Of a stretch of DNA of 64,000 bases, positions 9,931 through 62,169 are shown piece by piece; the first letter of the stretch is position 1; each line of letters opens with the position of its first letter. The DNA is from Nanobdellota archaeon (GTDB lineage Archaea; Nanobdellota; Nanobdellia; Pacearchaeales; GW2011-AR1). Below the pieces are notes generated by a model. It was not told where the DNA came from. It was given only the letters and a program-made list of their open reading frames with translations, and ran no database searches. The stretch spans positions 132,314 through 196,313 of the forward strand of contig JANLHN010000003.1 of assembly GCA_024654505.1 (NCBI GenBank), read 5' to 3'. Made by a program: the position numbers and the translations under genes.

Positions 9931-9972
9931 TACGCCCACACCCTGCTCAAAGATACGCCCACACCAGGAATC
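9929..9972. repeat. Direct repeats mimicking a tRNA 3' end (GATACGCCCACACC...)
   Basis: The plus strand reads gatacgcccacaccctgctcaaa + gatacgcccacaccaggaatc. Each copy is the reverse complement of a ...GGGTGTGGGCG tRNA 3' acceptor end. Confidence 0.6.
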
Positions 9973-10058
9973 TGTTCGCATTTCACTCTTCTCTCAAAAT
10001 ATTTGTAGTAGTTCGAGAAGAGCAAAGATGCTCAAACCTGGACCCAGGTTCGAAGATA

Positions 10059-10139
10059 CGCCCATACCAGGAATCGAACCTGGGTACCCCGAAGGGTCAA
10101 GATTTCCAATCTTGTGCAATACCATTATGCGATGTGGGC
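10059..10139 (-). tRNA. tRNA-Ser (anticodon GGA)
   Basis: An 81-nt cloverleaf with acceptor GCCCACA/TATGGGC (one C-A mismatch). The anticodon stem is CAAGA/TCTTG with loop TTGGAAA. A long variable arm ACCCTTCGGGGTAC is present and the T arm is CCAGG-TTCGATT-CCTGG. Discriminator is G and no CCA is encoded. Confidence 0.7.
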
Positions 10140-10175: not shown

Positions 10176-10435
10176 ACGCCCACACCCTGCTCAAAGATAC
10201 GCCCACACCCTGCTCAAAGATACGCCCACACCCTGCTCGCCTTTAGGTCTGCAATAATCTTTTCATTTGTTCAGACCTAAAAGCTCGGCACCCATTTGGT
10301 GTACCTCTGTTGAGGCAAATCGAAGGTTCGATGTCCGGGAAAACGCCCACACCCTGCTCGCCTTTAGGTCTGCAATAATCTTTTCATTTGTTCAGACCTA
10401 AAAGCTCGGAATCGAAGGTTCGATGTCCGGGAAAA
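10176..10435. repeat. Array of tRNA 3'-end mimics: 23-nt tandem units plus two 92/122-nt hairpin-containing units
   Basis: The 23-nt unit acgcccacaccctgctcaaagat is repeated 2.7 times (10176-10238). Two longer units follow, each starting acgcccacaccctgctcgcc and containing the inverted repeat TAGGTCTG...CAGACCTA. The proximal unit (10222-10342) carries a 30-nt insertion. Confidence 0.65.
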
Positions 10436-10516
10436 CGCCCACACCCGGAATCGAACCGGGATGCCAGTGAAGGCCCGGTTTTCTAGACCGGTGCAATACC
10501 ATTATACGATGTGGGC
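10436..10516 (-). tRNA. Class II tRNA (long variable arm), nominal anticodon AGA (Ser-like; atypical A34)
   Basis: An 81-nt cloverleaf with acceptor GCCCACA/TGTGGGC. The anticodon stem is CCGGT/ACCGG with loop CTAGAAA. The variable arm has a GCC..GGC stem and the T arm is CCCGG-TTCGATT-CCGGG. The first 25 nt are near-identical to tRNA-Ser(GGA). Confidence 0.5.
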
Positions 10517-18254: not shown

Positions 18255-18420
18255 AATTTAAGGCCCTTTAAAAAGCTTGTGTTTGTTGTTATTATTGAGT
18301 GATTAAATCTTCTTAAATAATCAAAGGAGTTAAACTTAAAAACTAAATCTCCAAAGAATATTTATGCCTCAATAGTATAAAGTAACATCCTAGATGTTGT
18401 ATGAATACAATTGAAGCAAA

Positions 18421-22097: not shown

Positions 22098-25000
22098 TTA
22101 TAATAGTTTCTTTATCTCTCGATCTAGTCTTTTTACTTCAGAATCTTCATTTTTCCACCAGTCCCTACTCCAAACTCGAAGAATGTTCCATCCGGAATTT
22201 TCCAAAATTTCTTGTCTATAAATGTCTCTTTCCTTTGCACTTTTTGATGAGTGGTACATTGCACCATCGCACTCTATCCCAACAATAAATTTTCCTTTTT
22301 GCTTTGGATGAACAACTGCAAGGTCAATCTTATATCCTTTACATCCAACTTGAGTTTTTATTTTATAGCCAATTTTAGACAGGGCATCCCTAACCTCTCC
22401 CTCAAAATCACTATCGTATGATTCAAATTCTGGCGATTCGGCATCTATTTTAAGTTCATTTAGAGAATCTAACTTTTCATCAGCCCTCTTGTAGTCTCCT
22501 TCAGAGATATACTTAGAATAGCTGAGGTAATCTCGCAAGAGTTTTGGCCCATCGAACGAACCACTATATTTCAATTCACTTGGGTCAAACGAGTTAAATA
22601 TTATTATTTTCTCTCTAGCTCTGCTTATTGCAACGTTAAGCCTATTAGGTCCATAAGGGCCGTTAAGAGGACCAAACATATATCTAAATTTCTTTGTTTT
22701 ATCGAAACCATAACTTATTGAAAAGATAATGATATCTCTTTCATCTCCCTGAACATTCTCAATATTTTTAACAAATATACCCGTATATTCATCTTGATTA
22801 TATCTTTCTCTTTCAGAATCGAGTAATTTTGCAAATAAGGGGTCCTTTGCAGCTTCTTCATCTAAAAGTTCTTCAATCAAGTCTTTTTGTTTAACATTAA
22901 AGGTTATAACTCCAAGAGTTGGCTGTTCTTTAGTTTTGAGTAACTCTTTTATCTTTTTTACAACTTCTTCAGCCTCTCGAAGGTTTATGCCCGAGTCCCA
23001 AATTCCCCTAACATTTTTGTATTCTATTGCCGTATCTTTCTTAACTTTATTTTTTGGAATAACCCTTAACGACTTATCATAGAAAGCATAGTTTGAAAAA
23101 TTAATTAATTCTTCATGGTTTGACCTATAATGGTATATAAGACGTTTTCCAGGAAGTGTTGTTTTTGCTCTTTCAAGTAAAGACTCGTTTTCTAGTAGCT
23201 GTTGTTCATCATAGTCTTCAAATTTTTCATCTTCAAATTCTTCTTGGGAAGCCATAAAAAATCTGCTTGGAGGCAACTGTTTTTCATCGCCAGCAACGAT
23301 TAAACTTTTTCCACGATTTATAGAAGGGATTGCCTTTTCAAGTCTTGTTTGTGAAGCTTCATCAAAAATAACTACATCAAAAAGATCTTTCTTTAAGGGG
23401 AATATAGATGATACTGTTTCTGGTGAACACATCCAACAAGGAAATAACTCTAAAAGACCTTCCCTATAGAATACATTGAAAAGTTCTCTAAACGTTAGTC
23501 TCTTTCTCTGTTTATTTAATTCATGAACCAGCCCTCTTAAATTATTATAATTTTTTCTTCTCCCATCATAATCATAATTTTTCCACTTTAGTTCGCTATA
23601 TTTATTCATAAAAGACTCATAGATGACTTCCGGTATAACTTCAATTTTTTTATTTATTAATTCAACTAATTTATTTTTGATTGATTGATAAGTTTCATCA
23701 GAAAAACTTCGAATTATAGGGTCATTAGATTCTGATTCATTAATCCAATGAATGAAGAAGCTATTTTCTATTGTTTTCCTCCAGATAGGGGTCATGTCAT
23801 CTCCCAAGTTTTGGCGAATACTACTATAGCATAAATTGGCAATCTTATACTCTAAGTTAGTCAACTTCTCAAGATTAGAATCAAAAAGAACAATCTCATC
23901 TAACTCCCCAAACAACTCTTTTATTTTAACAAAAATGATTGAATTCTTTTCAAAATTGATGAAGTTTTTTTCAATAGACTCTAAAAACTCTTCTTTAAAT
24001 AATAGGCGAATAAAGCTTAAAGAATCTTTTAGACTCTTAAGGGGTTTTTCCAATAAGTTCCATCTTTCAATTAGTTTTTCAAAGTCTTCAGGCGAACGAA
24101 TTTTAGAGTATTTTGATTTTAAACTCCACCATTTAGAGTCGAATATTCTCGAGAACCTATTCTTCTCTTTATCTTTTAAAAACTTAAGTTCTTCAGAGAT
24201 GTTGAATAGTTCCTCAATATTTAATTTTCTCTTAAAATTAATTAATTTTAAATCACTTTTAAATTCTTTATTATAAAAAGTCTTTTCAAGATTTTCAAAA
24301 ACTTTTATTGTATTTGCTACCTTCTCTTTAAATTCTAGCTCGTCAAATTTAGTGCTAAATCTTTTTCTAAGATAAATCGGTGAATCACTTTTTTCATATT
24401 TATAAAATTGGTTTGCAATCTTAGATATGCTCTCACTATAGGTCTTTAAATCATTAAAACTAACTTTTTCAAATAATTCACCTTTGATGTCCAAGATTGG
24501 TTTTTGTTCCTTATTAGAATGTCGGTAGAGTGAGTATAGGCTTATACCATGTTTACCTTTATCATGTATTAAACTAATTAATTTTTTTAATTCTAAAAGA
24601 CCCATATCAAAAGATTTAGCTTTTTCAAGCATCTTCTTCATATTTGGCTCTCCAGAAAAGCCATCTACCCCATCATCCTTTAGGTCGTATGCATTTAATG
24701 TAGAGGCCATCTGCTTAAAAATTTGATTTCTATCATTTTGGGAATCGTGGATGAGCAGACAGTGTTTGCTTATGCCCTTAGAAGCTAGTCTATTCTTCAC
24801 AACATCAAGTGCAGCTCTTTTTTCACAGACCAATAATATCTTTTTATCTCTTAGTAAGTTATCTGCAATAAGATTAGTAATTACTTGAGATTTTCCCGTT
24901 CCAGGAGGACCATGGATTACTAATCCTTTACCAGTTCTAGATTTGATTAAAACTTGCTCTTGACTTATATCTGGCTTAGTTATAAAATAATTATCTGCCT

Positions 25001-25856
25001 CTGGGGAATCAATTAATTTTTCATCATCAAATCTTTCTTCAAGGTCTCTTTCAGTATTTTCTCCAAGTATCAACTTAGAAGAATCAGATAAACTTTTGTC
25101 TTTTATTAGTTCATCATAATCATTATTCATTGCACTATTAAGTTGACTAAATTCTCCCAAGATAGCATAGGGTAGAAATTCTATTTTCCCAGAAAGATTT
25201 TTAGGATGCTCATCTTTAATAAGTGGTTTTAATGAATCAATCTTTGTTTTTTTAAATGTGTTAATATTTGTTTCCATGTTCAATCCCTCAAACAATTGTA
25301 CTGACCATTCAATCAACTCTTCAGACTTCAAATCCTCAATTTTTTTTAAATCTTCTAAATTTAAATTTTTATAACCCTTATTATATTTATTAAAAGCAAT
25401 AAAGAATGTCTTGTTTATTTGAACTGAAGAATCTGGAAGAGGTTTTATAGTAACTTTTCTAGTCGCCCTGTTAAAGTCTATTTGAATTGGGACAAGAAAT
25501 AAAGGTGCTCTAAAAAAAGAACCTTCAGAAAAGTTTCCCTGTATAAATGGGTAACCTAAGAAGCATTCATGATAACCTTTCTCTTTAAGTATAAACTCTA
25601 CATCTCTCTTAAGATATAGAATGTCTTTTAGAATTCTCTCTTCCTCTTTATTTTTAACGTTAATATCAATGAGGTTAGCAGATTTATTTTCAAAAAAAAG
25701 CTTGTTAACTACTTGGATTGGCTGATCACTTTCTATGTTAGATAAATCAGAAATATCAAAGGTTTTCTTTTTTATAATTCTGGAAAGTCTAATTGCTCTA
25801 TTTCTTCGACTAATATCATTTAATCTCTCCTGATACTTCTTGAGAACTTTCTCCAT
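22098..25856 (-). CDS. DUF4011 – Upf1-like SF1B helicase – DUF559 (Vsr-like endonuclease) fusion protein
   Basis: Walker A is IHGPPGTGKS and the Walker B region is VIFDEASQT...VAGDEKQLPP. Motifs YRSNHEELINFSNYAFY, GVITFNVKQ and NVQGDERDIIIFS match the Upf1/DNA2 series. The C-terminus DLAVVHPKQKGKFIVGIECDGAMYH...ILRVW matches the DUF559 nuclease fold. The roughly 300-aa N-terminal domain resembles DUF4011. Confidence 0.75.
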   Translation of the reverse strand: MEKVLKKYQERLNDISRRNRAIRLSRIIKKKTFDISDLSNIESDQPIQVVNKLFFENKSANLIDINVKNKEEERILKDILYLKRDVEFILKEKGYHECFLGYPFIQGNFSEGSFFRAPLFLVPIQIDFNRATRKVTIKPLPDSSVQINKTFFIAFNKYNKGYKNLNLEDLKKIEDLKSEELIEWSVQLFEGLNMETNINTFKKTKIDSLKPLIKDEHPKNLSGKIEFLPYAILGEFSQLNSAMNNDYDELIKDKSLSDSSKLILGENTERDLEERFDDEKLIDSPEADNYFITKPDISQEQVLIKSRTGKGLVIHGPPGTGKSQVITNLIADNLLRDKKILLVCEKRAALDVVKNRLASKGISKHCLLIHDSQNDRNQIFKQMASTLNAYDLKDDGVDGFSGEPNMKKMLEKAKSFDMGLLELKKLISLIHDKGKHGISLYSLYRHSNKEQKPILDIKGELFEKVSFNDLKTYSESISKIANQFYKYEKSDSPIYLRKRFSTKFDELEFKEKVANTIKVFENLEKTFYNKEFKSDLKLINFKRKLNIEELFNISEELKFLKDKEKNRFSRIFDSKWWSLKSKYSKIRSPEDFEKLIERWNLLEKPLKSLKDSLSFIRLLFKEEFLESIEKNFINFEKNSIIFVKIKELFGELDEIVLFDSNLEKLTNLEYKIANLCYSSIRQNLGDDMTPIWRKTIENSFFIHWINESESNDPIIRSFSDETYQSIKNKLVELINKKIEVIPEVIYESFMNKYSELKWKNYDYDGRRKNYNNLRGLVHELNKQRKRLTFRELFNVFYREGLLELFPCWMCSPETVSSIFPLKKDLFDVVIFDEASQTRLEKAIPSINRGKSLIVAGDEKQLPPSRFFMASQEEFEDEKFEDYDEQQLLENESLLERAKTTLPGKRLIYHYRSNHEELINFSNYAFYDKSLRVIPKNKVKKDTAIEYKNVRGIWDSGINLREAEEVVKKIKELLKTKEQPTLGVITFNVKQKDLIEELLDEEAAKDPLFAKLLDSERERYNQDEYTGIFVKNIENVQGDERDIIIFSISYGFDKTKKFRYMFGPLNGPYGPNRLNVAISRAREKIIIFNSFDPSELKYSGSFDGPKLLRDYLSYSKYISEGDYKRADEKLDSLNELKIDAESPEFESYDSDFEGEVRDALSKIGYKIKTQVGCKGYKIDLAVVHPKQKGKFIVGIECDGAMYHSSKSAKERDIYRQEILENSGWNILRVWSRDWWKNEDSEVKRLDREIKKLL

Positions 25857-35619: not shown

Positions 35620-36393
35620 TTATCTGTTTCCTTTAACTTTTTGAAAATAGGGACAGATGTTTTGATAGCCGCAGTAATTACATAGTTGGCTAATGCATGC
35701 AGGAAATTCTGTTGCGTTCTCTATTCTCGCGATTTTAATCATAACTTCTTCTTGCAATTTGTGGAGCTTTTCTTCCGTTGGTTCAGCAATCACTTGTTGG
35801 TTGTGAGCCAGCATATTCCAAACGAGTTTTATAGAATTGGCTTCTGGAAAATTATTCCTTGCCCAGATAGAATACATTGCAAGTTGTTTGTCATTTTCAA
35901 TTTCCCATTGTTCTTTCATTTGGGAACTTGTTTTATGATCTATAATATAATAATTACCTTCAGAATCTTTAGCAAAAAGATCAATCCGAACATGCCATTC
36001 ATTGCCATCTGGAAGAGTCATCATGTCTCTAGTCTCTAGTCCAATAATTTTTAACTTGTCAAATGGTGTGTGTTTGTCATAATAATCTAATAAGAATTTT
36101 TCTCCTTTTTTTCTATAATCGTCTGGAGTCATATATTCTTTTACAATTAAAATGTCGTCGTTGTATTCATTATCCCATAAGTTATTGTAAAATCTTATAG
36201 TTTCTTCTTTAGATAGTTTAAATAAAGTTTCAATGGTTTTGTAGAGTTTTTCTAGTGTTTGATGAACTAAATTTCCCATAAATCCTTCAATTGTTGTAGG
36301 GAAATCTGGTTTTAGCCAGTCTATATACTTCAACTTATATTGATATGGGCACTGTTCAAAAGTGCTTATTTTAGAATGGGAATATCTCGCCAT
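35620..36393 (-). CDS. Cas4/RecB-like PD-(D/E)xK nuclease with Fe-S cluster
   Basis: An N-terminal Cys (QCPYQY) plus the C-terminal CISQLCNYCGYQNIC give the four-Cys cluster typical of Cas4/AddB. The catalytic core is RIDLF...IIDHKTS (D...D-x-K). Confidence 0.6.
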   Translation of the reverse strand: MARYSHSKISTFEQCPYQYKLKYIDWLKPDFPTTIEGFMGNLVHQTLEKLYKTIETLFKLSKEETIRFYNNLWDNEYNDDILIVKEYMTPDDYRKKGEKFLLDYYDKHTPFDKLKIIGLETRDMMTLPDGNEWHVRIDLFAKDSEGNYYIIDHKTSSQMKEQWEIENDKQLAMYSIWARNNFPEANSIKLVWNMLAHNQQVIAEPTEEKLHKLQEEVMIKIARIENATEFPACISQLCNYCGYQNICPYFQKVKGNR

Positions 36394-36769: not shown

Positions 36770-36887
36770 GCGTGGGTAGTATAAAGTAACAAACAAGTTG
36801 CTTCGAGAATACAACCCACAAATAAATCGCGTGGGTAGTATAAAGTAACGGCATAGCCGTTTCGAGAATACAACCCCCAAATAAATC
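36770..36887 (+). repeat. Two 59-nt-periodic pseudo-5'-end copies of tRNA-Gly (GCGTGGGTAGTATAAAGTAAC + spacer)
   Basis: Copies start at 36770 and 36829, and the real tRNA starts at 36888. In each copy the first 14 nt equal the tRNA 5' end, followed by AAAGTAAC instead of the D-loop. Confidence 0.7.
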
Positions 36888-36959: not shown

Positions 36960-37032
36960 TATTGGGGAATCGAACCCTGTGAGAGATTGGCCTCTGAGAG
37001 GTCTGCAACTTGTTGCCGAGGCCCGCGCATAT
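36960..37032 (+). repeat. 58-nt element plus duplicated tRNA-Gly 3' end (ggcccgcgcatat)
   Basis: The 13-nt direct repeat lies at 36950-36962 and 37020-37032. The intervening segment begins GGGGAATCGAACCC, the reverse complement of a T-arm, and contains the palindrome CCTCTGAGAGG. Confidence 0.6.
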
Positions 37033-45429: not shown

Positions 45430-45539
45430 GACAGCGACGGAGAATTTGTTTTTTTGTTTTTTGGATAAATCCCCGGCCGGCTCACAATTGGTGTACTTCT
45501 GCTGAAGCAAATCGAAAGTTCGATTCCGATATATTAGAA
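45430..45539. repeat. tRNA-Tyr downstream element with duplicated 3' end and conserved stem-loop module
   Basis: aatccccggcc (45468-45479) duplicates the tRNA 3' end at 45537-45550. The module TTGGTGTACTTCTGCTGAAGCAAATCGAAAGTTCGAT (45488-45529) matches 10296-10337 with compensatory stem changes. Confidence 0.55.
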
Positions 45540-45610
45540 TCCCCCCGGCCAGAATCGAACTGGCACATATCGGGCTACAGCCGAATGTTCTACCATTGAA
45601 CTACGGAGGG
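45540..45610 (-). tRNA. tRNA-Tyr (anticodon GUA)
   Basis: A 71-nt cloverleaf with acceptor CCCTCCG/CGGGGGG and the archaeal C1-G72 pair. The anticodon loop is CTGTAGC and the T arm is GCCAG-TTCGATT-CTGGC. Discriminator is A. Confidence 0.75.
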
Positions 45611-45668
45611 TTTGTCACCTACGGAATTCTCATGAAACGGCTATGCCGTTACTTTGAACTACGAAGGG
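45611..45668 (-). repeat. Pseudo-5'-end copy of tRNA-Tyr (CCCTTCGTAGTTCAAAGTAAC + spacer)
   Basis: The copy lies 58 nt upstream of the tRNA 5' end and contains GGCATAGCCGTTTC, also found upstream of tRNA-Gly. Confidence 0.6.
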
Positions 45669-54154: not shown

Positions 54155-54262
54155 GAGAATGGCCCCACCAAGAATCTTCTCACAAAATGCATTTCACAAT
54201 TAATATTTTTCTGTTTGATTGTTCAAAGCGTTTTGTTCGCCTTGGGCACCCAAGTTCGAGAA
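54155..54262. repeat. tRNA-Val downstream element + duplicated 3' end (gagaatggccccaccaagaatc)
   Basis: The 22-nt direct repeat lies at 54155-54176 and 54258-54279. The element contains the palindrome CTTGGGTGCCCAAG, built from the tRNA T-stem sequence. Confidence 0.6.
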
Positions 54263-54333: not shown

Positions 54334-54387
54334 ATAGCTCCGTTGTCTTCATGAAACATCTATGATGTTCCTTTAGACTATGGGGCC
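54334..54387 (-). repeat. Pseudo-5'-end copy of tRNA-Val (GGCCCCATAGTCTAAAGGAAC + spacer)
   Basis: The copy lies 54 nt upstream of the tRNA 5' end. AAAGGAAC replaces the D-loop. Confidence 0.6.
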
Positions 54388-54457
54388 GTTTAGAGGAGAA
54401 CAAATTCTTTGCTTTTAAAACTTATGATTGGGGAATAGTGATAACATTTAAATAAGA

Positions 54458-58327: not shown

Positions 58328-58744
58328 ATGGAAAAAACACCTATTTCACAAGGAAATACCTGGAATACCTCAGGAGATATTGAAGCTATGGGGACTGGAG
58401 GAGTAGACTCTCTTAAAGAAGCTATTGAGGAGGTAGATGAGTTAATTAGAAAGAGAGAAATTCTAAGTCAGAGGTTTCTTGCTGAGGGAGAAAAAATGAA
58501 GACAAAGATTAATAATTTCTTGTCTGAAAGTGCTCCTAAGGGAGATGATGATTCTGAATTTGCTCGTGAACGGGCAGAGCTTAGAAAAAAACAGATTGAA
58601 ATTTCTGAGATGCAATTGAATGAAACTGTTGGTGCCTGGAGAGATATCGCCCTTTTGAAAAAGGAATTAAGAGATAGAACCAAGGAATTACATGAAAAAA
58701 CTAGTAGGGCTGAAGCTCTTGGAAGGATTATGGAGGGAGAATGA
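58328..58744 (+). CDS. Coiled-coil protein, translationally coupled to downstream ATPase
   Basis: A 138-aa ORF. Its stop overlaps the start of 58741 (ATGA). Confidence 0.4.
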   Translation: MEKTPISQGNTWNTSGDIEAMGTGGVDSLKEAIEEVDELIRKREILSQRFLAEGEKMKTKINNFLSESAPKGDDDSEFARERAELRKKQIEISEMQLNETVGAWRDIALLKKELRDRTKELHEKTSRAEALGRIMEGE

Positions 58745-60648
58745 CATTTCAACACCCATTAACTGTTGAAGAAATTTGTAATAAACTTCGTCCTGTTTAT
58801 GGAGATAAAGTAGATAAGATTTATTTTCAGTATACCGTAGCAGAAAGTAAAGAAGAAAAGGAAGAAATATTCCATTTTTTGAATGCATTATATCAAAAGA
58901 ACCTAAGTAAACTTCTTGACACTGGTGTTTTGTTAGAACCTCCTAGAGAAGAGATGATTGATGGAACTTATGAACTAGGGACGGTAAGTTATGCTAATAG
59001 GAGACTTTTTCCATTTAAATTGAGGGAAAAAGATTGGCCTAGGCATGTTTGTATTACTGGGATGTCGGGTTCTGGAAAAACGACTTTGGCTTTTAGTATT
59101 GTAGATGCTCTAAAGAAAAATGGTAAGCCTTTTTTGATTTTTGACTGGAAAAAATCTTTTAGGCCGTTGTTAAAAGAAGACCATTCTTTATTATGTTTTA
59201 CTGTTGGAAATGATTTAGTTAGTAACTTGTTTAAAACAAATATAAATCAGCCACCAAGAGGGGTTGCTCCAAAAGAGTGGATTAATGTTTTGGCGGATTT
59301 ATTGACTGAATGTTTCTACGCATCTTTTGGTGTTCATAAAGTTATTTTGGAAACTCTTGATGAGGCATTTAAGGAATGGGGAATTTATAATGGATCTCTT
59401 AATTATCCTACCTGGAATCATATTAAGTGGAGGTTAGAAGAAAAACTAAAGAAACAGACGGGTAGAGAAGGTGGTTGGTTAGAGTCTGCCCTAAGAATTG
59501 CTACAGTACTAACTTTCGGAGAATTTGGAAAGACGGTTAATTATAAGGGAGAGAATAGTGTTTCCGTAGAGGACCTATTGAACCAAAGAGTAATTTTAGA
59601 ACTTAATTCGTTAGGGAATATTGAAAAAACTTTCTTTTGTGATTTTGTTTTAATGTATATTTACAAATTGAAAAAAGTTACACAAACAGAAGTTAATCAC
59701 AGTTTTGATCATGCAATTATTGTTGATGAGGCCCATAATATCTTTCTTAAAAGAGAGACTAATTTTGCTAATGAATCTGTAACTGATATGATTTATAGGG
59801 AAATGAGAGAGTATGGGACAAGTCTTATTTGTTTAGACCAACATATTTCTAAAATATCGGATACAGTTAAGGGAAATAGTGCTTGCCATATGGCTTTTCA
59901 ACAGCAATTACCTGCAGATGTTTCAGACATTAGTGATTTGATGCAACTTTGGGAGAAAAAACATTACTTCTCTCAGCTACCTGTTGGAAGTGCGATTGTA
60001 AAACTTTCTGAAAGATATACAAAACCCTTCTTAGTAGAGGTTCCATTGGCAAATGTTAGGAATTTTGATGTAAATGATGTAGAAGTAAGGAGTAGAATGA
60101 ATGCAATGAGTTTGACTAAAGATTTCGAGAAGAATATCGACGAGGAATTTAATGAAGAAATAATTCAACCAAGGCCTGTCTTTGAAGAATCTGAAAAAGT
60201 TATTAGTGATGAAGAAACAAAACCAAGAAATATTGGAGATATTTTATATAATTTTGTTATTGGTTACTTAAATAAAGGTGTTGAACTCCATGAAGTTGAG
60301 AAGATTTTAGAAGAAAGTAAGTCTCAAGGTGGGTATACTTCTGAAGATATAATTAAGGTCATCAATCGTGTCTTTGAGGAACAAGGAAAAGTAAAGTTTA
60401 AAAAAGAGGAGTCCCCTAATAATCTTGGCGATGGATTAAATCAAAATCCCGATAGGCAAGAATTCCTTGAATTTTTGCAAAAGAACCCGAACCATAATTT
60501 TAGTACAGTTGAACTGTACAAACAAATTGGTCTTTCCCCTAGGAAAGGCACTAAAATAAAAAAGGAGCTCGAAGCCGAAGAGCTCATTCGGGTTGAAGAA
60601 GAAAAGAATGAGAAAGGTTGGAAGAAATATATCCGCCTCGCTCGTTAA
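58741..60648 (+). CDS. HerA/DUF87-family P-loop ATPase with C-terminal winged helix
   Basis: Walker A is ITGMSGSGKTT. PFLIFDWKKSF resembles the HerA L-I-F-D-x-x-G-E-Y region. Walker B is IIVDEAHNIF. The C-terminal wHTH is FSTVELYKQIGLSPRKGTKIKKELEAEEL. Confidence 0.6.
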   Translation: MTFQHPLTVEEICNKLRPVYGDKVDKIYFQYTVAESKEEKEEIFHFLNALYQKNLSKLLDTGVLLEPPREEMIDGTYELGTVSYANRRLFPFKLREKDWPRHVCITGMSGSGKTTLAFSIVDALKKNGKPFLIFDWKKSFRPLLKEDHSLLCFTVGNDLVSNLFKTNINQPPRGVAPKEWINVLADLLTECFYASFGVHKVILETLDEAFKEWGIYNGSLNYPTWNHIKWRLEEKLKKQTGREGGWLESALRIATVLTFGEFGKTVNYKGENSVSVEDLLNQRVILELNSLGNIEKTFFCDFVLMYIYKLKKVTQTEVNHSFDHAIIVDEAHNIFLKRETNFANESVTDMIYREMREYGTSLICLDQHISKISDTVKGNSACHMAFQQQLPADVSDISDLMQLWEKKHYFSQLPVGSAIVKLSERYTKPFLVEVPLANVRNFDVNDVEVRSRMNAMSLTKDFEKNIDEEFNEEIIQPRPVFEESEKVISDEETKPRNIGDILYNFVIGYLNKGVELHEVEKILEESKSQGGYTSEDIIKVINRVFEEQGKVKFKKEESPNNLGDGLNQNPDRQEFLEFLQKNPNHNFSTVELYKQIGLSPRKGTKIKKELEAEELIRVEEEKNEKGWKKYIRLAR

Positions 60649-61026
60649 TCATACTTTCACACATCACGACATCCACACACAAAACCAGTAACGACATGAG
60701 CTTTACCGCCCATCTCAACACTCCAGAAACTCGTGGATAAGCAAGATACTTTCAAATGGAAACTTTTGAGAGAATCTATGTGCTAGTCGTGACTGTGTTT
60801 CTGAAACAAATGCGTCGGAATATCTTAGAAATAAGTGTCTGACGTATGCTCTGATGGTGAAATACGTGTCTTAAGTCACTTAGCTTATACAAAGCGCTGG
60901 ATGTCTCCTTGAGGGAGGGCTTCCAGAGAAACGGGGTGTTCCTGTAGTGGCTGTTTTTTGTCGCCCTGATGGTCGGGGTGATTCTTTTTATCGGCTGAGA
61001 CGAAGGCGTCTCGGGAAGGAGTTCGC

Positions 61027-61272
61027 GTGATTAGGATGGGCAACGGACATAGGAGTTCGGAGAAGAAGGAGGGGAAGGTGAAGATAGTGAGGACACCTGC
61101 TCCCCCTTCTGATGAGGCACTGCTTCAGGAGCGGCTGCGCCAGATGGATGTGGCTTCCGGGAAGCTGCCCAGGATGGGGCGGAAGAAGGGGAACAACGGC
61201 TTCAACGGGGAGTCGAACGGCCAGCAGCTAGATGACCCGCTCCGTTCGATGATCCTCCCCAACCACCTCTAG
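61027..61272 (+). CDS. Small basic ORF in GC island
   Basis: GTG start with AAGGAG upstream. 81 aa. Confidence 0.3.
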   Translation: MIRMGNGHRSSEKKEGKVKIVRTPAPPSDEALLQERLRQMDVASGKLPRMGRKKGNNGFNGESNGQQLDDPLRSMILPNHL

Positions 61273-61281
61273 AAGGGAGGG

Positions 61282-61557
61282 GTGATGGGACGGAAGAAGC
61301 AGTGCTATGGGAGAGAGGGAGTCTGTTTGACTCCTAATTGTCCCTACGCCCTGGGTTGTATCCAGATCTGGGGCAGAGACCGACTCCTTAAGAAGAGGGG
61401 AGTTGGGGTAGAACAAAGCGTGCCGAGGGGCTCGGTGCGTTCCAAGGGCCCGCAGGGCAAAGTGTCCCGGGAAAGAAGAATTGGAGGGAGGATAGTAAGT
61501 GAGCAGACCGATTTTCTCAACACCATCTCAGATGATGGTGGGACTCCCAGAAGTTAG
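61282..61557 (+). CDS. Small Cys-containing ORF in GC island
   Basis: CYGREGVCLTPNCPYALGC in the N-terminus. 91 aa. Confidence 0.3.
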   Translation: MMGRKKQCYGREGVCLTPNCPYALGCIQIWGRDRLLKKRGVGVEQSVPRGSVRSKGPQGKVSRERRIGGRIVSEQTDFLNTISDDGGTPRS

Positions 61558-61843
61558 TGGGGGGAGGAAGGTCTCGGTGGACCGCGCCCTGGAAGTCCTG
61601 GGGTTGACGGCATCCACCTTCAGAGACAAGATACAGAGGGAGGAAGGTTTCGACATGGATAACCTCGTTGCTGGGGGGAAGAAGTTCTCTGCGAAGGGGG
61701 CGCCTCTGGCTGGGGGGGAATTCCTCCTCCGGGTCTTCATCGGAGGAAACATCGAGGCCAGAGTTCTCCTGGACCCTGAACGACAGAGGGTACTCTCAAC
61801 TCAGGAAGTCCAGATGACTAGAGAGGGGGTAGTGGCCCTGTAA
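61499..61843 (+). CDS. Excisionase/AlpA-like HTH protein (in GC island)
   Basis: VSVDRALEVLGLTASTFRDKIQREEGF fits the Xis/HTH_17 pattern L-s-x-x-E-a-a-x-l-L-G-v-S-x-s-T-x-y-R. Confidence 0.35.
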   Translation: MSRPIFSTPSQMMVGLPEVSGGRKVSVDRALEVLGLTASTFRDKIQREEGFDMDNLVAGGKKFSAKGAPLAGGEFLLRVFIGGNIEARVLLDPERQRVLSTQEVQMTREGVVAL

Positions 61844-61872
61844 GAGGTCATGGGCTCCTAGACGGGACGATG

Positions 61873-61931
61873 CTGGGGGTGTGGGCTAGGGAGGAAGTTC
61901 TGCCTACACCCCCAGACAGGCTGATTTTTTT
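61873..61931 (+). terminator. GC-rich hairpin (10-bp stem) followed by T7
   Basis: CTGGGGGTGT...ACACCCCCAG then ...ctgattttttt. The stem includes GGGTGTGGGC, identical to the tRNA-Ser 3'-end core. Confidence 0.35.
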
Positions 61932-62169
61932 AGTAATAGGGTCAAGAAAGAAAGGAGAATCTCATGAGTAACAATCTTTGGACCACGTTTGTTTTTTTGT
62001 TTTTTTGTTTTTTTTTGCCTTTATCTATATACTTTAATATATATGTTGAAGAATATAGGTTGAAAATTGTTTTTTGTTTGAGTTTTTGGGGCTGGCCGCC
62101 CCGAATAAAGAATTTGAAGTTTGTTGGAACCACAACAAACTTTATATAATCCTTGAGATAATCTTTGTT

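Follow-up and report, generated by a model that had tools for sequence, protein, structure and literature searches.

The 64-kb stretch of DNA analysed here (the window), from a small DPANN archaeon of Woese- or Pacearchaeota type, contains an intact tRNA-Tyr gene whose 3′ flank recurs in an array of tRNA-Ser fragments, raising the question of whether the shared sequence is one conserved RNA. The first-pass annotation had described it as a stem-loop module with compensatory base changes, and the repeat itself is real: a 26-nt stretch, TTGCYTCARCAGARGTACACCAAWTG, matched twice on the minus strand (10293-10318 and 45485-45510) against a chance expectation of 0, confirming both copies at their reported places. 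The likeness also proved longer than the 40 nt initially noticed, since pairwise alignment of the Tyr and Ser loci runs further 3′, through all 29 nt of a unit that we call E (TGCCTCAnCAGAGGTACACCAAnTGGGTG) and the CCG that follows it. The module is, however, composite, consisting of a tRNA-derived palindrome and E.

The palindrome had been taken to mimic a T-loop. It is T-loop-like, but it is an actual inverted and direct copy of the T-arm of the adjacent tRNA. At each locus ATCGAAC-N-TTCGAT consists of the tRNA's own T-arm in inverted form (GAATCGAACT for Tyr, ATCGAACC for Ser) and a direct TTCGATT, and its central dinucleotide (CT versus CC) corresponds to the last T-stem bases of the respective tRNA. 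At the Tyr locus the inverted repeat joins 45517-45526 with 45552-45561. The sequence ATCGAACYTTCGAT matched three times in the window, always on the minus strand (10319-10332, 10411-10424 and 45511-45524), where 0.05 matches were expected by chance. The Tyr and Ser palindromes are thus similar because each was copied from its own tRNA, that is, through conservation of the tRNAs, and as this half of the module derives from tRNA, its conservation is no evidence for a new RNA.

E has two copies in the window by covariance model R1, a canonical one in the Ser array and a divergent one at the Tyr locus, and at both loci it splits a T-arm copy precisely where T-loop position 60 meets T-stem position 61. 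Each tandem tRNA-Ser(AGA) unit is ordered TTTT, CCCGGAC, palindrome ATCGAACC/TTCGATT, CCGAG, a 13-bp hairpin, GAGCA and GGGTGTGGGCG, the last being a copy of the final 11 nt of tRNA-Ser(AGA). Apart from E, units A and B are the same, with 104 nt at 100% identity, and E is therefore a clean 29-nt indel, in the only clean filled/empty pair available for E. The repeats flanking it, of 37 nt and 67 nt, are 100% identical between the units, the junctions show neither target duplication nor microhomology, and the edges of the indel are the conservation edges found in other genomes. Slippage deletion was considered as the origin of the difference between A and B and rejected: the sole direct repeat, TGCC, would drop 27 nt and leave TG, which does not match the observation. 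As an empty-site check at the tRNA-Tyr locus, exact look-ups of two neighbouring window proteins returned no record; in relatives with a 71-75% identical GTPase, the tRNA is missing at the matching position.

It had been allowed at the outset that just two copies might exist. Instead, E was found in 22 distinct intergenic contexts in DPANN contigs of Woese-, Pace- and Nanoarchaeota type, nearly invariant over its 29 nt across these labels, loop-adjacent unpaired bases included. TT directly precedes it in 19 of the 22 contexts (p ~ 4e-19). The neighbouring genes differ among loci (TyrRS, TBP, AspRS, RecJ-like, RRM protein, HNH endonuclease and others), no conserved synteny was detected among the loci compared, and most copies are far from any tRNA; settings include divergent-gene and convergent-gene spacers, an antisense position in an operon spacer, and tRNA pseudo-copies. 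Blocks of 95-230 nt that carry E recur in unrelated gene contexts (L018/L027, L023/L039 and L007/L032). A strict pattern matched just 5 species among the 185,579 of the GTDB species collection, and a 965-kb contig had a single match, which marks the distribution of E as sporadic and low-copy; contigs hold 1-3 copies, with a maximum of 3 in one MAG, counts from which diverged copies may have escaped. Bacterial matches to the search pattern were at chance level, their likeness stopping at the pattern edges, and viral contigs gave no matches to E.

Pairing in hairpin 1 of E is preserved. The CTTC/GAAG versus CCTC/GAGG difference between the window copies reflects a genuine change of both bases, from C-G to U-A, by which the Tyr copy retains hairpin 1, and an independent two-sided change, U-A to C-G, was found in L027; one-sided changes (G.U to G-C, G.U to A-U and U-A to U.G) also occur. 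Helix 1 is 100% paired, with changes on both sides at 2 pairs. Helix 2 is invariant save in the Tyr copy, where it is broken, and a third hairpin, CACC/GGTG, is formed in the Ser copy and disrupted in the Tyr copy. The covariation claimed for the module is nevertheless modest in E, involving 2 of 9 pairs with an observed value reached in 13 of 500 shuffles, and a DNA hairpin element would be just as likely to show it. At Rfam gathering thresholds, tRNAs alone passed in the window and 18 loci and E matched no family, leaving the suggested small RNA with little to support it; permissive scans of the Ser array and L018 returned just chance-level snoRNA and miRNA matches (E-value >= 0.38). The other suggested role, as a tRNA trailer-processing or terminator element, does not agree with the position of E: T-runs precede E rather than follow it (in the Ser array it comes after two T4 runs, each behind a tRNA-type 3′ end), it is sense on the 3′ side of tRNAs and antisense on the 5′ side, and most copies are away from tRNAs.

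Several larger structures were also considered. A conserved outer stem around E, forming a three-way junction, was rejected, as pairing between matched flanks is only marginally stronger than between mismatched flanks (p ~ 0.03) and a subset of loci drives the effect. A longer structured RNA beginning at E (L018, L027, L023, L039 and L029) was likewise set aside, the RNAalifold consensus being unconvincing past hairpin 1. Identity of E with a fragment of rRNA, RNase P or SRP RNA was without Rfam support. In L013, GCGGGCTTATC may resemble the CR-V region of RNase P.

The E copies in the window sit within a broader pattern of tRNA-derived cassettes (Table 1). A 5′ cassette, made up of a copy of about nt 1-15, a hairpin that is conserved and covaries, and an antisense segment, accompanies four of the six tRNA genes of the window, and a 3′ cassette, consisting of an inverted T-arm piece, an insert and a 3′-end copy, accompanies five of the six; the same types occur in other DPANN genomes. 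The DNA enclosed by the tRNA-end copies measures 12-120 nt, with 5′ repeats of 14-15 nt and 3′ copies of 9-36 nt. The 5′ core has the form AAGTAAC-stem-loop-GTTTCATGA; the Tyr and second Gly cores are identical over 20 nt, and their flanks are tRNA-specific. Covariation of this core is strong, with 98% of cells paired and the observed value reached in 0 of 500 shuffles. TATA-like boxes are positioned 25-32 nt upstream of the outer 5′ copy, and from this spacing the 5′ cassette is almost certainly transcribed. For one and the same tRNA type, a cassette can be present in one genome and absent from another, as for Arg-tcg (L028 versus L040) and Ser-aga (the window versus L014). Like 3′ cassettes are found with E in L011, where a hicAB pair follows the cassette, and without E in L040, and both read ...CAATTCGCTT at the site.

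Table 1. Positions of tRNA genes, tRNA-derived cassettes and copies of unit E in the window
Feature	Position	Strand	Description
Third minimal Ser unit	9933-9955		23 nt
tRNA-Ser(GGA) and 3′ cassette	9956-10139	-	gene 10059-10139; cassette 9956-10058: inverted T-arm piece TCGAACCTGGGT, direct CCAGGTTTGA, hairpin insert ending GTGAAATGCGAACA, outer 3′ copy GATTCCTGGTGTGGGCG
Minimal Ser units (2)	10177-10222	-	23 nt each; TATCTTTGAGCA and 3′-end copy GGGTGTGGGCG
Tandem tRNA-Ser(AGA) 3′ cassettes (2)	10223-10435	-	unit A 10344-10435, without E; unit B 10223-10343, with E
Unit E, canonical copy	10289-10317	-	TGCCTCAACAGAGGTACACCAAATGGGTG; covariance model R1, 52.2 bits
tRNA-Ser(AGA)	10436-10516	-	ARAGORN; Rfam
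tRNA-Asp 5′ cassette	18366-18420	+	nt 1-14 copy, core AAGTAACATCCTAGATGTTGTATGA, antisense ATACAATTGAAGC, spacer AAA
tRNA-Gly 5′ cassettes (2, tandem)	36770-36887	+	59 nt each
tRNA-Gly 3′ cassette	36960-37029	+	inverted T-arm GGGAATCGAACCC, insert, copy of last 9 nt GCCCGCGCA
Degenerate outer copy of tRNA-Tyr 3′ end	45470-45480	-	CCGGCCGGGGA versus real CTGGCCGGGGGGA; read from sequence
Unit E, divergent copy	45481-45509	-	TGCTTCAGCAGAAGTACACCAATTGTGAG; covariance model R1, 45.1 bits; sequence checked
T-loop palindrome (hairpin 1 of the first-pass annotation)	45510-45526	-	inverted tRNA-Tyr T-arm copy GAATCGAACT abutting direct copy TTCGATT
tRNA-Tyr(GTA), intact	45540-45610	-	ARAGORN; Rfam tRNA, 64.2 bits
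tRNA-Tyr 5′ cassette	45611-45668	-	outer copy of nt 1-15, core hairpin, antisense, spacer TGACAAA
Imperfect antisense of nt 1-13 in tRNA-Tyr 5′ cassette	45618-45629		GAATTCCGTAGG
Core hairpin in tRNA-Tyr 5′ cassette	45630-45653		AGTAACGGCATAGCCGTTTCATGA
Outer copy of nt 1-15 in tRNA-Tyr 5′ cassette	45654-45668		one mismatch
tRNA-Val 3′ cassette	54159-54262	-	inverted GAACTTGGG, insert ending GTGAAATGCATTTTGTGAGAA, copy of last 18 nt
tRNA-Val 5′ cassette	54334-54388	-	core AAGGAACATCATAGATGTTTCATGA

We favour, with about an even chance of being right, a reading of the region not as one RNA gene but as nested selfish or relic non-coding DNA of insertional origin, in which E is a REP- or double-hairpin-like insertion element. 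E would then be mobile, the constraint upon it would act at the level of DNA rather than RNA, and an enzyme that serves it would exist. In a first layer, small insertions of just 43-120 nt would strike a tRNA gene and supply a replacement end, leaving the gene intact, as integrating elements do, and the cassettes would later be amplified in tandem through unequal recombination between repeats. On the 5′ side, the cassettes run from a direct copy of nt 1-15 through the hairpin core and an imperfect antisense of nt 1-13 to the tRNA; on the 3′ side, the tRNA is followed by an inverted T-arm piece that abuts a direct T-loop copy, then by an insert whose own ends are conserved, and finally by a direct 3′-end copy. 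The tRNA-Ser(GGA) gene has a C6.A67 mismatch with its own 3′ strand, and the outer copy GATTCCTGGTGTGGGCG would leave no mismatch against the 5′ acceptor strand, a pattern which suggests that the gene may carry an imported end. In a second layer, E would be a separate element whose gain or loss is exact, duplicates no target and takes place 3′ of TT, frequently in the hairpin loops of cassettes and in T-rich intergenic DNA. Both stems would be kept because E is recognised or propagated as folded single-stranded DNA, and E would act like the hairpin ends of REP or IS200-IS605-type elements or like mitochondrial double-hairpin elements.

Known systems resemble E in part. REP/REPIN sequences with RAYT and the subterminal hairpins of IS200/IS605 are short intergenic imperfect palindromes with compensatorily kept stems, placed seamlessly without target duplication. 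E shares with them the short imperfect palindromes with compensatory stem changes and the seamless placement 3′ of a short target (TT), but it packs two dissimilar hairpins into 29 nt and its host is a DPANN archaeon. REP-type families also reach tens to hundreds of copies, against the 1-3 per contig of E, and no Y1/HUH transposase (RAYT or TnpA) was found in the 64-kb window. Small hairpin and double-hairpin insertion elements are known in organelle genomes (PMC2800124). Mitochondrial double-hairpin elements, yeast GC clusters and repetitive hairpin-forming elements (PMC2800124, PMC4478555) match E in their size of tens of nucleotides, their one or two hairpins, their scatter in AT-rich spacers of small genomes, their presence or absence between near-identical sequences and their lack of a known function or enzyme; they differ in their eukaryotic organelle hosts and unrelated sequence, and E is far more conserved across lineages. 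Unlike a MITE, E has neither terminal inverted repeats nor target duplication, and complementarity of its flanks is confined to a subset of loci (p ~ 0.03). The arm of a tRNA-targeting mobile element was the closest of the three functions suggested in the first-pass annotation, although no mobilising enzyme was found in the window ORFs: among the 40 ORFs, Pfam detected no integrase, transposase, Cas1 or reverse transcriptase. The low copy number of E counts against an insertional origin, as do the lack of viral matches, the single filled/empty pair, the strong covariation of the 5′ core and the likely transcription of the 5′ cassette, and the direct/inverted/direct order around a conserved core matches no known mechanism. 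E is also conserved where its bases are unpaired, and at one orthologous site; purifying selection for a host function would have this effect, and the insertional reading is weakened accordingly.

Two alternatives would give these sequences a cellular role. The cassettes could be functional pre-tRNA leader and trailer structures, with a transcript starting from the outer 5′ copy, hairpins that guide or buffer 5′ and 3′ end maturation (e.g. in a lineage with reduced RNase P) or give stable leader small RNAs, and E as an accessory stem-loop; we regard this as unlikely. The pattern is systematic on both sides of the window tRNAs and likewise in other genomes, the TATA-like boxes are at a fitting distance from the outer copy, the core hairpin covaries, the antisense segments follow each tRNA's own D-stem and acceptor sequence, and in minimum-free-energy folds the outer copies are able to replace the inner ends, completing a tRNA-like shape. 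The cassettes are nonetheless dispensable, none being present 5′ of the Ser genes, 3′ of the Asp gene, at L004 Ile or 5′ of the L040 Arg gene, and they vary in number (Gly, Ser and L014 have them in tandem). In Ser(AGA), L028 and L040, T4 runs come straight after the inner 3′ end and imply that several 3′ cassettes are probably past the terminator, a 5′ core occurs together with E between rpoA'' and rpl30e in L025 with no tRNA near, bulge-helix-bulge geometry could not be drawn by hand at the junctions, and E is antisense in two leaders and sense in three trailers. Alternatively, E might serve the host in cis, as a DNA or RNA site bound by a sequence-specific protein (regulatory, 3′-UTR or site-specific recombination) under purifying selection, its presence in tRNA cassettes being incidental. 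Such a role appears quite unlikely. It would account for the near invariance of all 29 nt, unpaired bases included, and the few copies; for E often lying in sense orientation 40-70 nt past a stop codon, e.g. of RRM and Zn-ribbon RNA-binding protein genes; for the orthologous E downstream of the Zn-ribbon gene in L034 and L040, where the surrounding intergenic DNA has diverged; for homology between loci that stops at the 3′ edge of E in two comparisons; and for a subfamily with a conserved extension, CCCACCC..GAGAGA.., in which alternative pairing of GGGUG is possible. It accommodates less readily the restriction of the strict pattern to five GTDB species, the missing synteny, the mixed settings (divergent, convergent, operon-antisense and tRNA pseudo-copies) and a Zn-ribbon homologue in the window that has no E downstream, and a regulatory site would hardly be expected to appear as a clean indel between tandem units that otherwise match completely.

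Other alternatives liken the sequences to established classes of tRNA-associated DNA. Archaea possess non-canonical tRNA introns, for which transposition has been proposed, and E or the cassettes could be bulge-helix-bulge introns or pieces of split or permuted tRNA genes. The exact 60/61 position of E at both window loci, as of a short conserved insert at one tRNA position in differing contexts, the 5′ insert after nt 15 within the D-loop, the presence of exon-complementary sequence in inserts and the tRNA-like folds with outer copies are all reminiscent of introns. Yet the hosts are T-arm and 3′-end fragments lacking most of the tRNA, so that removal of the insert would not yield a complete tRNA, and each adjoins an intact, intron-less gene; neither E at 60/61 nor the 5′ insert at 15/16 allows a 3-nt bulge/4-bp helix/3-nt bulge with cleavage at the observed junctions, both 5′-insert junctions are preceded by the same 4 nt instead of by complementary bases, and most E copies are outside any tRNA context. 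We therefore disfavour this explanation as highly improbable. Casposon or Cas1-type integration targets tRNA genes and produces 14-15-bp target duplications, and the cassettes share both the target and the 14-15-nt 5′ direct repeat, but they lack terminal inverted repeats, their 3′ copies span 9-36 nt, no casposase or Cas1 was present in the window ORFs, and inverted target copies would stay unexplained. The cassettes could also be decayed scars of kb-scale integrated viruses or plasmids, i.e. classical att duplications, with E as leftover arm sequence, which we consider distinctly improbable. A complete tRNA gene with a nearby direct, partial copy of its terminal segment is the textbook signature of such events (PMC9897764), partial tRNA copies being a by-product of element integration in PYG1 of Pyrococcus yayanosii (PMC9897764); the Ser(GGA) mismatch fits an imported 3′ end, and the hicAB pair behind the L011 cassette is also compatible with this origin. 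However, the known cases involve 9-23 kb elements that encode an integrase and are bounded by repeats of ~44 bp (PMC9897764), whereas the inserts here are all short (12-120 nt), lie on 5′ and 3′ sides alike, always include a hairpin core and a tRNA-specific inverted copy, which integrase recombination does not create, and have no integrase or recombinase nearby by Pfam. The same conserved cores adjoin the outer copy in Asp, Gly, Tyr, Val, Ser, Arg and Gln, and independent deletions would not converge on one minimal structure in all of these. Viral contigs gave no matches to the 3′ core and 16 to the 5′ core, all chance matches in coding sequence.

Literature searches found no description of the E sequence or of this cassette architecture. 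It is conceivable, although we attach a low probability to it, that the cassettes represent an undescribed tRNA gene architecture in DPANN archaea of Woese- and Pacearchaeota type, with self-templated leader and trailer cassettes made by, or serving, dedicated machinery (a new, target-regenerating insertion mechanism that acts on tRNA genes and creates direct/inverted/direct copies, or RNA-level maturation or protection); on this view, E would be smaller than any discrete mobile or recombinogenic DNA unit yet seen in archaea. If E moves seamlessly, as the favoured insertional reading would have it, REP and double-hairpin selfish DNA would extend to ultra-small archaeal genomes, and E would offer a handle for finding its enzyme. 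The wider cassette pattern, in which nearly every tRNA gene of the window is wrapped in copies of its own ends and antisense copies around conserved hairpins, may matter more than E. It bears on the survival of tRNA genes as insertion targets, on the origin of partial tRNA 'genes' that mislead annotation and possibly on tRNA end maturation in DPANN archaea. In practice, tRNA-fragment arrays and T-loop palindromes are to be expected near DPANN tRNA genes and should not be called RNA genes.

Two further readings of E were rejected. It contains GAGGT 7 nt before A/T/G-TG, reminiscent of a small ORF or translation-initiation cassette, but the downstream ORFs have 10-45 codons and are unconserved. 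L040 holds two direct copies of E, considered as the possible ends of an integrated element, and translations of the intervening 6 kb correspond to GatD/E/B-like housekeeping genes.

Both sequences of the stem-loop module that the first-pass annotation had placed downstream of tRNA-Tyr and tRNA-Ser, as a product of selection on RNA structure, were present at the positions it gave. ATCGAACYTTCGAT occurred three times in the window (0.05 expected) and the 26-nt TTGCYTCARCAGARGTACACCAAWTG twice (0 expected). Folding of the module produced three small hairpins; the third (CACC/GGTG) forms in the Ser copy but is disrupted in the Tyr copy. The Tyr trailer, read on the tRNA-sense strand, consists of TTCTAATATATCG, GAATCGAACT, TTCGATT, 29 nt and CCGGCCGGGGA, where GAATCGAACT exactly reverse-complements AGTTCGATTC of the tRNA-Tyr T-arm (inverted repeat I2) and TTCGATT...C(C)GGCCGGGG(--)A directly repeats the tRNA-Tyr T-loop and 3′ end in degenerate form. 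The Ser units carry CCCGGACATCGAACC, which apart from one extra C reverse-complements the Ser T-arm (CCCGGAATCGAACC), and then direct TTCGATTCCGaG, an insert and GGGTGTGGGCG. These trailer/T-arm comparisons for Tyr and Ser indicate that the first proposed hairpin is made up of an inverted and an adjoining direct copy of the T-loop of the gene's own tRNA. The palindrome read as a covarying conserved hairpin is real, but its conservation is tRNA-derived: its similarity between Tyr and Ser, and the central CT versus CC, reflect tRNA sequence and not a shared new element. A three-way alignment further showed that Ser unit B equals unit A plus exactly 29 nt, and a repeat search (families D3 and D4) found the 37 nt and 67 nt flanking this block to be 100% identical between the units. 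The 29-nt double-hairpin unit is called E below.

The flanks of each window tRNA were searched for copies of its own ends and then laid out. Nearly every tRNA gene proved to have direct and antisense copies of its ends on its flanks, arranged around conserved hairpin cores; these are referred to here as cassettes. In the window, 5′ cassettes (54–59 nt upstream) were found at Asp, Gly (two tandem units), Tyr and Val, and in other DPANN loci matched by our scans (L numbers) at L028 (Arg), L014 (Ser, two units) and L038 (Gln). The window ones comprise a copy of the first 14–15 nt, AAGTAAC-stem-loop-GTTTCATGA, an imperfect reverse complement of nt 1–13, 0–9 nt and the tRNA, with TATA-like boxes (TTTATATA, TTAAAAAT, TTTTAAAA, CTTAAAAAC) 25–32 nt upstream of the outer copy. 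Covariation of the 5′ core hairpin was strong: 98% of cells are paired, both sides have changed in three pairs, and no shuffle out of 500 reached the observed value. Over 20 nt the Tyr core does not differ from the Gly-2 core, despite tRNA-specific flanks. The 3′ cassettes were found in the window at Gly, Val, Tyr and both Ser genes and elsewhere at L032 (Ser), L040 (Arg, 36-nt copy), L038, L014 and L011. In the window, the T-arm 5′ half recurs inverted a few nt past the tRNA, usually abutted by a direct T-loop copy; an insert with a conserved distal end (...GAAATGC..TTGyGAryA) and a direct copy of the last 9–18 nt of the tRNA follow. Their core across the window and other loci is GTGAGCAATTCGCTT...GGAATGCAAATTGCGAGTA, and the 23-nt TATCTTTGAGCA+GGGTGTGGGCG repeats of the Ser region are minimal 3′ cassettes. 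No cassette was found at L004 (Ile), 5′ of Arg in L040, 5′ of the window Ser genes or 3′ of window Asp. We know of no mechanism that produces such a direct/inverted/direct arrangement.

Coordinates of cassettes, E copies and neighbouring features (window positions unless a locus is named)
Feature	Position	Strand	Remark
Window tRNA cassettes	18366-18420, 36770-36887, 36960-37029	+	
Window tRNA cassettes	45611-45668, 54334-54388, 54159-54262, 9933-10058	-	
5′-cassette core with E in loop	L025 575-650		no tRNA nearby
E near RNA-binding protein genes	L040 2826-2854, L040 8971-8999, L034 7365-7393	-	Zn-ribbon site common to two genomes
E extension subfamily	L018 2500-2643 (-); L027 3419-3560; L023; L039; L029		
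HNH-type ORF	L037 1701-2252 / L019	+	apparent
hicB/hicA-like pair	L011 1860-2330		apparent
tRNA-Ser(GGA)	10059-10139	-	
Outer 3′ copy, tRNA-Ser(GGA)	9956-9972		TGTGGGC
tRNA-Ser(AGA)	10436-10516	-	
tRNA-Ser(AGA)	L014 200-280	+	
SF1 helicase fusion	22098-25856	-	1252 aa
PD-(D/E)XK / Cas4-like nuclease	35620-36393	-	
HerA/Zot-like ATPase	58741-60648		
GC-rich stretch	~60650-61950		1.3 kb

A scan of one genome per GTDB species gave 14 loci with the E pattern: six from five DPANN MAGs (labelled Woesearchaeota, Pacearchaeota, Nanoarchaeota or "archaeon") and eight bacterial, the latter within coding sequence and without extension past the search pattern. A metagenome scan leaving two stem pairs free gave 29 loci, 24 of them low-GC, DPANN-like and carrying the full unit. 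With a covariance model of E (R1), two more copies were recovered, one of them the second in L040 and the other, a diverged one, in L011; on the window with filters off the model returned the two known copies and no others. Together with the 20 distinct contexts to which the E loci collapse, these copies dispose of the worry that the module exists only twice. The consensus is TGCCTCA(n)CAGAGGTACACCAA(n)TGGGTG. Its last four bases, absent from both search patterns, were kept in all 19 full-length contexts other than the window Tyr copy (the L016 copy, cut by a contig end, was left out of the 19). A 965-kb contig had a single strict match, as did contigs of 218 and 255 kb, and E is therefore low-copy. 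No copy was present in the viral contigs searched, and no Rfam family matched E in scans of the E loci and window.

Maintenance of the hairpin by covariation was upheld in part. Pairing in helix 1 is preserved in its variants (U-A to C-G in L027, C-G to U-A in window Tyr, U.G in L028, and G.U to G-C and to A-U in the second copies of L040 and L011), but the formal signal is modest, with double-sided changes in two of nine pairs and the observed value reached by 13 of 500 shuffles. In 21 of 22 contexts the loop of hairpin 2 has A, T or G at its variable base (position 23 of E), so that GAGGT is followed 7 nt on by ATG, TTG or GTG, an arrangement resembling a Shine-Dalgarno site and start codon; the ensuing ORFs are 10–45 codons long and unconserved.

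E occurs in the 5′ core loop, antisense to the tRNA, in L014 and L028, and in 3′ cassettes, sense to the tRNA, in L011 and at window Tyr and Ser B; L040 has a related 3′ cassette with no E at the matching ...CAATTCGCTT site. The genes around E are unrelated among loci, and may be convergent, divergent or co-oriented; one copy is antisense, in the spacer between RNA polymerase A′′-like (rpoA′′) and L30e/L7Ae-like (rpl30e) genes of L025. TT directly precedes E in 19 of 22 contexts (p ~4e-19 versus local composition) and C follows in 13 of 21, while flank-to-flank pairing was confined to a subset of loci (p ~0.03). In pairwise comparisons, blocks of 95–230 nt with E recur in unrelated gene contexts (L018/L027, L023/L039, L007/L032), and homology stops at the 3′ edge of E in L013/L018 and L034/L040. 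The strongest evidence that E is a discrete unit, gained or lost precisely, comes from units A and B, which differ by a seamless 29-nt indel between otherwise identical repeats, with ends matching the conservation boundaries set by other genomes. The indel shows no microhomology through which slippage could account for it.

Partial tRNA copies classically arise by integration of an element whose attachment site holds a tRNA fragment (PMC9897764). The cassettes likewise combine an intact gene with a displaced end, the promoter staying with the outer 5′ copy. In contrast to such elements, their inserts are only 12–120 nt, both gene ends are involved, seven tRNA species and several genomes share the same conserved cores, and every insert has a tRNA-specific inverted copy. 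None of 40 window ORFs had a Pfam match to an integrase, transposase, Cas1 or reverse transcriptase, and the viral contigs searched contained no counterpart of the cores. The most likely explanation is that the cassettes are insertion-derived and E a second-order hairpin insertion; mobility, DNA-level constraint and an enzyme are inferred. The cassettes would be small insertions that regenerate the target tRNA gene, later amplified by unequal recombination; E would insert seamlessly, preferring TT, and its stems would be kept as for an element handled as folded single-stranded DNA. Stem conservation is expected of elements so handled, such as REP and IS200-IS605 ends, or of the double-hairpin and hairpin-forming elements known in organelle genomes (PMC2800124). 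Partial tRNA copies and small hairpin repeats are both known kinds; neither this cassette form nor E turned up in Rfam or the literature searched. That the self-copy architecture reflects a new mechanism is given a minority chance.

The regularity of the cassettes, their promoter position and the 5′ core covariation could instead indicate leader and trailer structures acting at the RNA level in tRNA maturation. We consider this improbable, however, as cassettes are dispensable and vary in tandem copies, T4 runs separate several tRNAs from their own 3′ cassettes, one core copy lies away from any tRNA (L025), bulge-helix-bulge geometry is absent and E occurs in opposite orientations. Slightly less probable still is that E is a host cis-element; its sporadic distribution, absence of synteny and clean indel weigh against this, whereas its extreme conservation at low copy number, the orthologous site in L034 and L040 (downstream of a Zn-ribbon gene, across an otherwise diverged spacer) and the conserved downstream extension of one subfamily are in its favour. 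The fit is poor for ordinary decayed prophage scars, BHB introns and chance alike.

The window homologue of this Zn-ribbon gene has no E downstream. In L040 and L034, genes for two apparent RNA-binding proteins, an RRM and a double Zn-ribbon protein, have E 40–70 nt past their stop codons. The subfamily extension comprises CCCACCC, 4–9 nt, GAGAGA, a GC-rich stretch, a GUCC..GGAC hairpin and AGAUAGC; GGGUG, the 3′ strand of E hairpin 2, could pair alternatively with the downstream CACCC. Part of the extension is present in L013 in inverted orientation. In L037/L019, an ORF whose translation shows an HNH-endonuclease-type motif overlaps E at its 5′ end, the terminal GTG of E being in frame; the contig also has a diverged Zn-ribbon gene and a core-like AAGTAAC..GTTTCATGG. 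In L011 an apparent hicB/hicA-like toxin-antitoxin pair directly follows the E-containing 3′ cassette, and the second E lies 1.8 kb beyond.

The window (GC ~34%) encodes archaeal housekeeping proteins, including ribosomal protein S10, TruD, exonuclease III, a thioredoxin-reductase-like protein and GTPases by translation, and ribosomal L10e, thermosome and PEP synthase by Pfam. The GTPase adjoining tRNA-Tyr is 100% identical to a protein of an NCBI MAG labelled "archaeon", with relatives labelled Pacearchaeota or Nanoarchaeota, and tRNA-Tyr itself (71 nt, short variable region) is of archaeal type. The nuclease gene adjoins the tRNA-Gly cassettes, and the SF1 helicase is fused to an MTES_1575-type restriction endonuclease domain. 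One stretch between the ATPase gene and PEP synthase is clearly GC-richer (0.47 across 60001-62000), has few long ORFs and ends in a GC-rich hairpin (CTGGGGGTGT..ACACCCCCAG) and T-run; this may be foreign DNA or an RNA not yet recognised.

The gene's own 3′ strand leaves tRNA-Ser(GGA) with a C6.A67 mismatch in the acceptor stem. The displaced outer 3′ copy would pair perfectly with the 5′ strand, and the minimum-free-energy fold uses this copy. Anticodon AGA, with A at position 34, is unusual in archaea; tRNA-Ser(AGA) was present in the window and in L014, and the window gene lies ~300 nt from tRNA-Ser(GGA), with which the codons read overlap.
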